From positions 1 through 55,436 of the forward strand of contig CAPZDM010000002.1 of NCBI GenBank assembly GCA_948745425.1: 55,436 bases of DNA. The letters are read 5' to 3'. Source of the DNA: an uncultured Clostridia bacterium. GTDB lineage: Bacteria > Bacillota > Clostridia > TANB77 > CAG-508. The notes under the pieces were generated by a model that had not been told where the DNA came from, ran no database searches, and worked only from the letters and a program-made list of their open reading frames with translations. Positions 15,051 to 16,942 of the stretch are shown here, one piece after another. The first letter of the stretch is position 1. Each line of letters opens with the position of its first letter. The position numbers were made by a program, and so were the translations under genes.

Positions 15051-15674
15051 TTAAATTTTCTCATACTCCTTGATTTTTTCTAATACTTTATACACTTGTG
15101 TACTAGGATTGCATTCCATGGCATTTATATCTTTTCCTAATTTCATATGATAACTTTCAAGTCTTTTAGCATTCTCTATTGCAATGTTTGTTCTCTCACT
15201 TATAAATTGAAAAATATCTTTACTTTTTTCATATTGAGGAATATATTTCTTTAATTCATCTATCAGTTCCATATTAGAATTATATTGTTTAGTACTATTA
15301 CTATAATGCAATATAAACCATATTTCAAAACACGGATTAGACTTTATTAATTCTATATTACTTTTTTTGCACTTATTATTTGCTTTATCTATTTGTACTT
15401 GTTTAGAAATATTACAATCTGTATCAAAAACACAATATGCAATATCTCGATCCTTCTTATTCATTCCTCTATCTTTTATTTCCTTTTCTAATATATTAAT
15501 CATATTTATAGGATCAGTATAATTACCTTTTGAAAATATTATAGAATACTTTTTACTTTTATTAAAATGATTAAGATATAATTTTTCTGTTTTATTTTTT
15601 CCCTCTGCTGCAATTAAAATTATAGGTCTTCTTTTTCTTGTTATTTTACCTCTTTGCTTAATTGTTATTCCCAT
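15051..15674 (-). CDS. RloB-family (AbiLii-like, Toprim-like) protein
   Basis: N-terminal RRPIILIAAEGKNKTEKLYLNHF is the RloB signature (EG..TE..Y). It overlaps the upstream ATPase gene by 10 nt. Confidence 0.75.
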   Translation of the reverse strand: MGITIKQRGKITRKRRPIILIAAEGKNKTEKLYLNHFNKSKKYSIIFSKGNYTDPINMINILEKEIKDRGMNKKDRDIAYCVFDTDCNISKQVQIDKANNKCKKSNIELIKSNPCFEIWFILHYSNSTKQYNSNMELIDELKKYIPQYEKSKDIFQFISERTNIAIENAKRLESYHMKLGKDINAMECNPSTQVYKVLEKIKEYEKI

Positions 15675-16942
15675 AAACTATCACCTAGTCCTAAAAACGG
15701 AATAGAGCCATATCTTCCCTGTAAATAGCCTTTTCTTATATTTTCTTGTTTTCTCACTGAAAATTCGTCTAGAGAATATAACTCTGTAGTTCCTTTCGAA
15801 TAATCTTTCTCTACAAAATAAATTTGATCTCTTCTAAATATATCTAATGATAGAAGATTTGTATCATGAGTATTAAATAATAATTGTGCATTATGAATAT
15901 TAACTTTTGGATTATGAAATAGTTCTACAATATATCTTACAAGCATAGGATGTAAGCTCCTATCAATTTCATCTATAACAGCAACTTTTCCTTGCTCAAA
16001 TGTTTCTTTTAGTATTGGACTTAAGAAAAATAGATTTTGTGTTCCAAGTGATTCTTCTTGCATATTTAATAGATATTGTATATTTCCCTCTTCTTTATCC
16101 TCTATTTCATGTGCTGTAAGTACTGTTCTACTAACTCCATTTACATCACTACTATTTTTTAGTATACTTTGTATTACTGGATCATGTATAAATGCTACCA
16201 TATCATCCTTTGTCATATTTTCTGTTTTAATATTGTAATCATTTATATTTATTTCTGCTTCCCTTAGTAAATTAATTGTAAATTTCTTAAGGCTTCCATC
16301 TTTATCATTATCAAATTTCTCTAGTACTTGATTTTGTAATGTTTCATAATCACTATAAGTATCTATACTATTTGCAAACCACATATATGCCTCTCTAGTT
16401 TTTCCATAATTCCATGTTGTAGCTGTTGCCAATAACAATTTATTCTCTGTATTTTTATCTTTTATAGAATTCAGTTCTTTCTCTTCATTCTGTGTAAATT
16501 TGTATTCATTTGTATTCTTTCTTTCAAATATCATACTTGGTTTAGCAGACAAATATTGATATAAGTACTCATCATATACTTTATTTACATCTGCCGAAAA
16601 ACCATATACATATCTAATTCCATTTGTATAAAATATAAATTCAAATTTAGTTGGCTTATTTTTGCTATCTTTATCAAATTTAAATGGGACTATTTCTAAA
16701 AGTTTTTCATTGATTTGTCTTCCACTTGATTTTCTAATTAATATTATTGCAGCTGTCATTGCTTTAAATATATTACTCTTACCAGAAGCATTTGAACCAT
16801 AAATAGCAATAGATTTTAATAATCTATCTTTGTCTTTTGAAAATATATTATTATCATTTTCTTTGTCCTTTCCAGCTAGCATACTTAATGTAACTTTATC
16901 TTTTATAGACATAAAATTCTCTACACTGAATTCAATTAACAT
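15665..16942 (-). CDS. AAA_15/AAA_21-type ABC-like ATPase (AbiLi-like)
   Basis: MLIEFSVENFMSIKD...IYGSNASGKSN (Walker A), VAVIDEIDRSLHP (Walker B), LLFNTHDTNLL (H-loop). Confidence 0.8.
   Translation of the reverse strand: MLIEFSVENFMSIKDKVTLSMLAGKDKENDNNIFSKDKDRLLKSIAIYGSNASGKSNIFKAMTAAIILIRKSSGRQINEKLLEIVPFKFDKDSKNKPTKFEFIFYTNGIRYVYGFSADVNKVYDEYLYQYLSAKPSMIFERKNTNEYKFTQNEEKELNSIKDKNTENKLLLATATTWNYGKTREAYMWFANSIDTYSDYETLQNQVLEKFDNDKDGSLKKFTINLLREAEININDYNIKTENMTKDDMVAFIHDPVIQSILKNSSDVNGVSRTVLTAHEIEDKEEGNIQYLLNMQEESLGTQNLFFLSPILKETFEQGKVAVIDEIDRSLHPMLVRYIVELFHNPKVNIHNAQLLFNTHDTNLLSLDIFRRDQIYFVEKDYSKGTTELYSLDEFSVRKQENIRKGYLQGRYGSIPFLGLGDSLWE

Follow-up and report, generated by a model that had tools for sequence, protein, structure and literature searches.

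A small serine-recombinase element in yabG of an uncultured gut Clostridium carries an AbiL-type operon as its only cargo

The DNA analyzed here (hereinafter, the window) is a stretch of 55,436 nucleotides (nt), positions 1 to 55,436 of contig CAPZDM010000002.1 in GenBank assembly GCA_948745425.1, from an uncultured Clostridia bacterium; the flanks in the window are ∼90% identical to genomes labeled 'uncultured Clostridium sp.'. In this window, the gene yabG is interrupted by a 4,367-bp element that consists of a large serine recombinase gene, a small open reading frame (ORF) of 37 amino acids (aa) and a two-gene operon closely resembling the abortive infection system AbiL. It is likely, although short of certain, that this is a mini-element of non-phage origin, moved by its serine recombinase and built to be excised from yabG during sporulation. 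All genes of the region lie on the minus strand, and the features that delimit the element are the following.

12746..17112: the mini-element, 4,367 bp, inside yabG, with no phage genes
17100..17561, minus strand: 5' part of yabG, a 153-aa ORF (Pfam Peptidase_U57, E-value 1.6e-37, profile positions 1-163)
12388..12745 (ORF 12388..12741), minus strand: 3' part of yabG, in frame from 12745 (Peptidase_U57, 1.4e-40, profile positions 164-276), with the cysteine of GACQS
17113..17117, minus strand: core CATGA of attL, in the His-Asp codons of ...ITGH/DG... (the slash marks the split)
12746..12750, minus strand: core CATGA of attR, within the right-arm stretch 12746..12803
17052..17112, minus strand: left arm, ∼60 nt, derived from attP, an imperfect inverted repeat of the right arm
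12746..12803, minus strand: right arm together with the core CATGA at attR, delineated by junction comparison, the inverted repeat and the empty-site alignment

The element sits precisely inside yabG, in agreement with the original prediction, which was made from the sequence without database searches. On the minus strand, the two junctions read ACAGGTCATGA followed by GAGTATTTACTAAAACGAAAAAAT, and TTTTTTTCGGTATATTAAAAACTAGCACATGA followed by TGGTATG, with CATGA common to both; the 5' ORF takes its four final codons (ESIY) and its stop codon from the element. The ends of the element form imperfect inverted repeats of ∼38 nt, with a score of 18 compared with 8.9±1.8 in 1000 shuffles. When the two halves of yabG are rejoined at the core, an 807-nt ORF results, and the encoded 268-aa YabG aligns in a single high-scoring segment pair (residues 1-264, 56-63% identity) with the products of nine uninterrupted metagenomic yabG genes. 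An empty-site contig from a close relative (L082) aligns with positions 17700-17113 of the window and then with 12750-9091; the two alignments have the 5-nt core in common and nothing more, which places the ends of the element at 12746 and 17112. The excised-type junctions deduced for the window are …CTAGCACATGAGAGTATTTAC… for attP and …ACAGGTCATGATGGTATGAT… for attB. Thus, the hallmarks of an intervening element, namely, a location in the interior of a mother-cell sporulation gene, short identical cores, inverted repeats at the ends and an intact ORF after rejoining, are all present.

The boundaries recur in related sequences. The 5' part of yabG is identical in the Logan contigs L002 and L071, the left arm is conserved in L006, L059 and L084, and the core with both arms is conserved across nine elements of the yabG type. 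In the YabG protein cluster at 90% identity, many intact 268-aa proteins are found alongside 117-aa C-terminal halves, one of which occurs on 89 contigs. In Clostridioides difficile, yabG is a mother-cell gene (PMC3789822, PMC10681294), and His161, Asp162 and Cys207 of its product are each required for activity (PMC10681294). Because the core splits the His-Asp codons and the cysteine is encoded in the 3' half, neither half of YabG is expected to be active alone. The Logan contig L001 (ERR3199689) corresponds to positions 14239..17117 of the window, and its first base coincides with that of the CATGA core. Such an end is the de Bruijn branch expected if the left end of the element has two joinings, for example, attL and attP, and is only a hint of that, with flank polymorphism as the alternative. 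Rfam and tRNA scans of the window found nothing.

The AbiL-type operon occupies the part of the element next to the left arm and comprises the following features.

15665..16942, minus strand: AbiLi-like ABC-type ATPase, 425 aa (PADLOC AbiLi, 2.1e-93; Pfam AAA_21, 1.2e-29, over the whole profile)
15051..15674, minus strand: AbiLii-like RloB protein, related to TOPRIM, 207 aa (Pfam RloB, 3.5e-35, over the whole profile; PADLOC AbiLii, 5.4e-26)
16967..16995, minus strand: sigma-70-type promoter-like site TTTACA-17-TATAAT 5' of the operon, with 11 of 12 matches, the best in the region
15003..15041, minus strand: terminator-like hairpin 3' of the cassette, with a 13-bp stem and a T-run (-13 kcal/mol, z = -3.8, none of 200 shuffles as stable)

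The ORF positions, the Walker A (GSNASGKSN) and Walker B (VIDEIDRSLHP) motifs of the ATPase and the LIAAEGKNKTEKLY stretch of the RloB protein had been read correctly from the sequence, and the hidden Markov model searches listed above bear out the assignment to an AbiL-like pair. The ATPase had been placed in the AAA_15/21 type; the AAA_21 part of this assignment holds, whereas the AAA_15 profile gave no match at E≤0.01. None of the NCBIfam models matches either protein. The two genes overlap by 10 nt (ATGGGAATAA) and share a single upstream promoter-like site and a single downstream hairpin, as befits one operon; the number of sigma-70-like sites across the region does not exceed that in shuffled sequences of this AT-rich DNA. 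The RloB protein, a member of a TOPRIM-related family (PMC10440598), contains the glutamate E24 (in AAEGK) and the pair D84-x-D86 (in FDTDC), as expected of a TOPRIM-type site, and AbiL is grouped with the systems that combine an ABC ATPase with a TOPRIM protein (PMC11464382). The AlphaFold2 model of the ATPase, built with 36 homologues, has a mean predicted local distance difference test score (pLDDT) of 78, and in a Foldseek search, PtuA of the Septu system came out on top, followed by Rad50/SMC heads, with template modeling scores of 0.35-0.48; this likeness identifies the ATPase as an ABC-type enzyme with an insert. The pairing of the ATPase with RloB is conserved in the homologous loci L085 and L087-L089 and on plasmids. 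The AbiL system of Lactococcus lactis is likewise a two-gene operon, with an AAA_21-type ATPase gene followed by that of an RloB protein, the likeness being established through the PADLOC AbiLi and AbiLii models, but the lactococcal system is plasmid-borne whereas the pair in the window is chromosomal and lies in a recombinase element within yabG of a gut Clostridium. Judged by every sequence criterion, the pair fits AbiL and is a new member of this known system; accordingly named, it would be predicted to confer anti-phage activity.

Two other identities of the pair deserve consideration. The combination of an ABC ATPase sensor with a TOPRIM-type effector is shared with PARIS and with OLD-like systems (Gabija, MADS3-4), and the PADLOC AriA model does match the ATPase at 1.5e-29. 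That the pair is a PARIS (AriA/AriB) system is nevertheless very improbable: the AbiLi match scores 311 bits compared with 102 for AriA, and the effector of PARIS is a DUF4435 protein whereas the 207-aa partner in the window matches RloB and AbiLii and shows no match to DUF4435 or AriB. Even less credible is the notion that the pair belongs, as accessory genes, to a type I restriction-modification locus and is not AbiL. The RloB family originally came to light in operons for type I restriction-modification (PMC10440598), where RloA and RloB received their names, but the element and its flanks contain no hsd-type genes, the neighbors being yabG, the recombinase gene, veg and genes for an extracytoplasmic function (ECF) sigma factor and its anti-sigma factor, and AbiLi is by far the best PADLOC match.

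Between the two halves of yabG, there is nothing besides the AbiL pair, the 37-aa ORF and the recombinase gene, which is spread over two overlapping ORFs; the plus-strand ORFs within 14945-17100 are all at most 51 aa long and overlap the AbiL genes. Given that the element holds no other plausible gene, the AbiL pair is its sole cargo, as had been proposed. The cassette fills a defined slot, because the similarity between the window and its relatives begins at 15003, just beyond the hairpin, and ends after the ∼60-nt left arm. A highly similar cassette is found in L085 (665..2638), with 84.7% nucleotide identity over 1,983 nt, promoter included; the pair itself is 83% identical, and the similarity starts only at position 17051 of the window. 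In L085, which comes from another species, the cassette is located immediately 5' of an intact yabG (66% identical), with no recombinase. By this comparison, the AbiL cassette has moved by horizontal transfer and has come to lie at yabG twice, and no mechanism for the second association with yabG was found. A 72%-identical pair of ATPase and RloB genes (L087-L089) lies beside RVT_1 and MqsR/MqsA-Panacea genes, in a setting that resembles a defence island. AbiLi homologues abound in gut Firmicutes (of the candidates scored, 6,762 reach E<1e-30), and pairs of ATPase and RloB genes were detected on 181 plasmids, with up to 42% identity.

The rest of the element is a recombination module.

14826..14939, minus strand: 37-aa ORF (39 aa when read from the ATG upstream), which may encode a recombination directionality factor (RDF), with a GGAGG ribosome-binding site 7 nt upstream
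14960..14987, minus strand: sigmaE-like motif GAATAAT-13 nt-AATATGAT, 20 nt before the ATG of the small ORF, with a score of 11/12
12780..14766, minus strand: large serine recombinase gene (Pfam Resolvase, Recombinase with an inserted LysM, Zn_ribbon_recom and DUF4368)
13933..13935, minus strand: an extra G (GGG) that splits the recombinase gene into overlapping ORFs of 282 and 401 aa

The 37-aa product has no match in Pfam, PADLOC or NCBIfam. Its position is conserved: an ORF of 35-59 aa lies directly 5' of the recombinase gene in nearly every relative, whatever the target gene, and the encoded proteins share the motif ...YEIE..LS.EE(I/L)K.IIC(K/E)KIA(K/R/N)(I/L)II.... The small ORFs are preceded by the motif kmATAww-13/14 nt-(C/A)ATAnnnT, and in 13 of the 22 loci, a sigmaE-like -10 element (score ≥11/12) ends 19-21 nt before the ATG, so that the motif is enriched, the share among random 90-mers from these loci being 5.6%, and fixed in position; the sigmaE consensus combines an ATA -35 element with a CATA-type -10 element (PMC3789822). 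In C. difficile's skin element, the 72-aa RDF CD1234 is controlled by sigmaE and SpoIIID, with the transcription start site 14 nt before the ATG (PMC5025042). Given the conserved position, the sigmaE-like motif and the likeness to CD1234, the small ORF is proposed to encode a mini-RDF that would limit excision to the mother cell, and by this analogy, it probably acts as an RDF. The hairpin after the AbiLii gene may insulate the promoter of the small ORF from the constitutive AbiL transcript.

In the window, the 282-aa ORF encodes the Resolvase domain of the recombinase, and the 401-aa ORF the Recombinase domain with the LysM insert, Zn_ribbon_recom and DUF4368. When the recombinase with the repaired frame is used as the query, 2,483 of the candidates scored fall below E = 1e-20; almost all of these relatives are ∼655 aa long and share its ∼85-aa N-terminal extension and its LysM insert. 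An intact 659-aa recombinase is encoded in L009-L012. LysM is normally an extracellular, peptidoglycan-binding domain. Its placement within the Recombinase domain, together with the conserved ∼85-aa extension (P0001-P0120), stands out, and the role of LysM in a cytoplasmic recombinase is unexplained. The hosts of the family are all metagenome-assembled genomes of uncultured gut Clostridia or Bacilli. A phage origin was considered and rejected: no relative of the recombinase was found in IMG/VR viral contigs, and its identity to proteins of INPHARED phages is at most 27%.

Insertions in yabG fall into nine types (the window, the L004/L009 type, L006, L007/8, L016, L020, L022/27, L026, and L029 with L059), all at the same His-Asp position. 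At seven other loci (L018, L019, L021, L023, L024, L025 and L034), the recombinase gene lies directly 5' of a truncated coding part for a cwlD-like Amidase_3 protein; these parts begin at profile positions 5-7 (...PHGG.DPG), with the core CATGG and a similar arm. At one locus (L013), the coding part that follows belongs to a peroxiredoxin gene and begins at profile position 33, and several further loci of the family have no assigned target. The 5' halves of cwlD were not found within the 1.7-10 kb of upstream DNA available per locus. The Amidase_3 and peroxiredoxin contexts suggest intervening elements in further genes. In L028 (10001..13939) and in L030/L031, two recombinases of the family, each with the N-terminal extension, are encoded in tandem, which may reflect nested or tandem elements. 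A deletion of the N-terminal half of yabG in relatives of the L004/L009 type was also considered and withdrawn because the C-terminal half is still under purifying selection. Given this selection, the L004/L009-type element is probably larger than the DNA that was retrieved.

The cargo differs among the elements, a point on which the original prediction had called for a survey of yabG-inserted elements, but it is not generally defence cargo. Within the same species, there are at least three alternatives: AbiL cargo is present in the window, in L001-L003 and in L071, whereas L084 has another left end and other cargo, and the L004/L009 type carries PemK and regulators. In L084 (ENA ERZ13657790, 470..754), the N-terminal half of yabG is 99% identical to that in the window and, after ACAGGTCAT, gives way to a different but related left arm. 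Other yabG elements carry a PHP protein, two GT2 glycosyltransferases, a lipoprotein-like ORF, an ECF sigma factor with a beta-propeller protein and a Spo0A_C-like protein, or almost nothing. Among the 114 ORFs located 5' of the small ORF in 19 relatives, the most common Pfam family is PemK_toxin, with seven members. A MazF-like gene adjoins the recombination module in at least eight elements, covering all target classes (the L009 type, L013, L018, L019, L021, L028 and L033, and in fragmented form, L007). The MazF/PemK genes beside the small ORF are located as follows.

L009 8941..9734; L013 8769..9580; L028 8944..9761; L019 1480..1839: MazF/PemK genes
L033 9405..9746; L018 1086..1487; L021 9018..9368: MazF/PemK genes

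The MazF/PemK gene is often followed by that of a ∼130-aa protein without a family match, possibly an antitoxin in the reverse order. Among the cargo of yabG elements, Spo0A_C proteins (one of which also has a receiver domain) and sigma-factor-like genes are found repeatedly.

L004/L009 1824..2540 and 3824..4540; L022 9126..9782; L027 9128..9781: Spo0A_C-type cargo

These are sporulation regulators borne by mobile elements, which recalls the earlier sporulation observed with the yin prophage.

The DNA next to the element deserves a separate mention. A pair of genes for an ECF sigma factor and a zf-HC2-like anti-sigma factor (window ∼17701..19387) is located just 5' of yabG and is missing at the empty site of L082; in L004 and L009-L011, the ECF sigma/anti-sigma pair is contiguous with ∼6 kb of cargo-like genes that run into the recombination module. 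This looks like an exchange of genes between the cargo and the DNA that adjoins yabG on its upstream side. A GC-rich terminator-like hairpin (17770..17788, minus strand; 8 pairs, 7 of them GC, in surrounding DNA of 24% GC) lies 3' of the anti-sigma gene.

The prevalence of PemK and MazF bears on the role of the AbiL pair, which fills a slot that usually holds a toxin-type module, so that an addiction role alongside defence is conceivable. In its strict form, this explanation holds that the pair is mainly a toxin-antitoxin-like module that stabilizes the element, such that cells losing it during growth would be killed by the longer-lived nuclease, with phage defence secondary or absent. Pairs of an AAA-ATPase and a TOPRIM_OLD protein indeed behave as toxin-antitoxin systems in NetFlax assays (PMC10440598). 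Still, AbiL was first defined through an abortive infection phenotype (Deng 1999, as cited in PMC10440598), and the related pair in L087-L089 sits among the defence-type genes mentioned above. We consider the strict form unlikely, if far from negligible, and note that the addiction and defence roles are compatible.

Several observations weigh against the proposal of a defence-bearing element that is excised by design, above all, those on the recombinase. At the site of the extra G, the window reads AGTGGGAAACGG, compared with AGTGGAAACGG in six close relatives, one G more in the window, so that the recombinase gene is present but split; the original prediction did not mention this frameshift. 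The second recombinase ORF has no evident ribosome-binding site, and exact-sequence look-ups of both frameshifted products retrieved no record elsewhere. In the nearest relative (L004/L005), the recombinase gene contains a nonsense codon (TCA to TAA at codon 558), and together with the frameshift in the window, this makes decay of the system in this lineage possible. If the frameshift is real, there can be no excision, and yabG is locked off. The whole arrangement would then be a fixed gene disruption, with yabG a pseudogene and the AbiL pair an ordinary chromosomal defence locus, an outcome made easier to accept by the fact that yabG is unnecessary for growth and not strictly required for spore formation (PMC10747680, PMC10681294). 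This is a serious possibility, to which we assign somewhat less than an even chance. Against it, each half of yabG remains an uninterrupted ORF, and neither the small ORF nor the att arms are disrupted; the C-terminal half shows 21-25 synonymous and 7-11 non-synonymous codon changes in comparisons with relatives, the same pattern as in an intact allele; a single-base change in a homopolymer can be an assembly error; and the end of L001 at precisely the core is what a second junction in that sample would produce. The extra G is either a mutation or an assembly error, and unless it is the latter, the element in the window is probably locked in place. A programmed frameshift was rejected because the relatives lack the extra G and there is no slippery-site or stop-codon context.

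The same side of the balance includes the results on the promoter, on the small ORF and on the cargo. Motifs of the sigmaE-like kind are not rare in AT-rich DNA, with 5.6% of random 90-mers drawn from these loci scoring equally high, and in the yabG-type elements, the -10 element begins with AATA rather than CATA; what speaks for the 37-aa ORF as an RDF is its position only. The single-sequence model of the RloB protein is unusable (pLDDT 44), so that the fold is not confirmed, and for neither AbiL protein is there a solved structure detectable by sequence, the profile search returning only marginal matches to PtuA and OLD. Anti-phage activity of the pair is a prediction from homology. PADLOC gave only scattered weak matches on the cargo of the sibling elements, most of which is not recognized as defence, so that 'defence cargo' is no general rule. 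The original prediction further held that the element is kept by the forespore germ line and lost from the mother cell alone: the design, with a sigmaE-like promoter and a small ORF, agrees with this by analogy, whereas the frameshifted recombinase of the window does not. With all these points taken into account, a serine-recombinase mini-element designed for excision during sporulation is the interpretation that we prefer. The identities of the genes, the limits of the element, its precise insertion, the conservation of the family and the variability of its cargo are established by the data, whereas anti-phage activity, the interplay of ATPase and nuclease, the RDF role, dependence on sigmaE and excision in the mother cell are inferred.

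Comparison with known elements makes the peculiarities of this one apparent. The yin element of Clostridium botulinum V73 (Douillard 2023, PMC10747680) likewise interrupts yabG, encodes a serine recombinase and restores yabG upon excision. However, yin is prophage-like and related to Caudoviricetes, its recombinase gene adjoins the 5' part of yabG, and its repeat is 14 bp long, whereas the element in the window is only 4.4 kb long, has no phage genes, places the recombinase gene beside the 3' part of yabG and uses a 5-bp core, and so does not qualify as a yin-type element. The yin paper reports one prophage in one strain and states that there is no other yabG insertion in public genomes (PMC10747680); the family described here contradicts that statement. 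The gin element in gerE of Bacillus cereus (Abe 2017, PMC5595907) is, similarly, not a prophage, and combines a serine recombinase (GirC) and a small factor (GirX) with restriction-modification cargo. With its 31 genes and three recombinases, gin contrasts with the four genes of the present element, two of them cargo, its single recombinase of the subfamily with the LysM insert and its 37-aa accessory ORF. By analogy, the window element would be closest in spirit to gin, although far smaller. The skin(Cd) element of C. difficile (Serrano 2016, PMC5025042) also combines a large serine recombinase, CD1231, with a small RDF, CD1234, expressed from a sigmaE-type promoter near the start codon. Its target is sigK, it has 19 genes, and its RDF consists of 72 aa, whereas the candidate RDF in the window consists of 37 aa and is encoded directly 5' of the recombinase gene. 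The carrier apparently represents a new variant of sporulation gene-intervening elements and belongs to a family undescribed in the searchable literature.

The preferred reading, that of a mini-element in yabG excised in sporulation, translates into the following scheme. The element would have been inserted by the large serine recombinase at the CATGA core in the His-Asp codons of yabG, and would consist of a recombination module, namely, the sigmaE-like promoter, the 37-aa ORF and the ∼660-aa LysM recombinase, and a cargo slot that holds the AbiL operon with its own promoter and terminator. During growth, the AbiLi ATPase may restrain the nuclease and sense infection, by analogy with AbiL, PARIS and OLD-like systems; a phage trigger would free the AbiLii nuclease, and the infected cell would be stopped. 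This division between an ATPase that serves as sensor and neutralizer and a nuclease that serves as effector is modeled on the group of ABC ATPase and TOPRIM systems (PMC11464382) and on the NetFlax assays (PMC10440598). By analogy with skin(Cd), SP-beta and gin, the element would stay integrated in growing cells and in the forespore, whereas in the mother cell, sigmaE-dependent expression of the small ORF would lead to excision of the element and restoration of yabG.

With due caution, since we put it at slightly below even odds, the family can be viewed as widespread, undescribed, non-viral 'cassette carriers' of gut spore-formers. Such carriers would combine a LysM recombinase with a peptide of 35-60 aa, which would be smaller than any directionality factor known, expressed from a sigmaE-type promoter; they would target codons of active-site-type motifs (GH-D/G-G) in sporulation genes, namely, in yabG, in the gene for the cwlD-like amidase and in that for the peroxiredoxin, and would carry an exchangeable toxin or defence module, MazF-like in most cases and AbiL here, that the germ line keeps and the mother cell discards.

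Gene-intervening elements in sporulation genes have so far been described mostly as prophages or large islands, whereas the one in the window is reduced to a recombination module and one operon, of the defence type here and of the toxin type elsewhere. There are thousands of recombinase relatives in gut metagenomes, and a near-identical att architecture is reused at two or three sporulation genes. If the interpretation is correct, these elements would provide a compact natural means by which a defence or addiction cassette stays in the germ line and the host gene becomes whole again in the terminal cell, as well as a source of new pairs of large serine recombinases and mini-RDFs with defined att sites. 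A split yabG or cwlD in metagenome-assembled genomes of Clostridia is, then, not necessarily a pseudogene.

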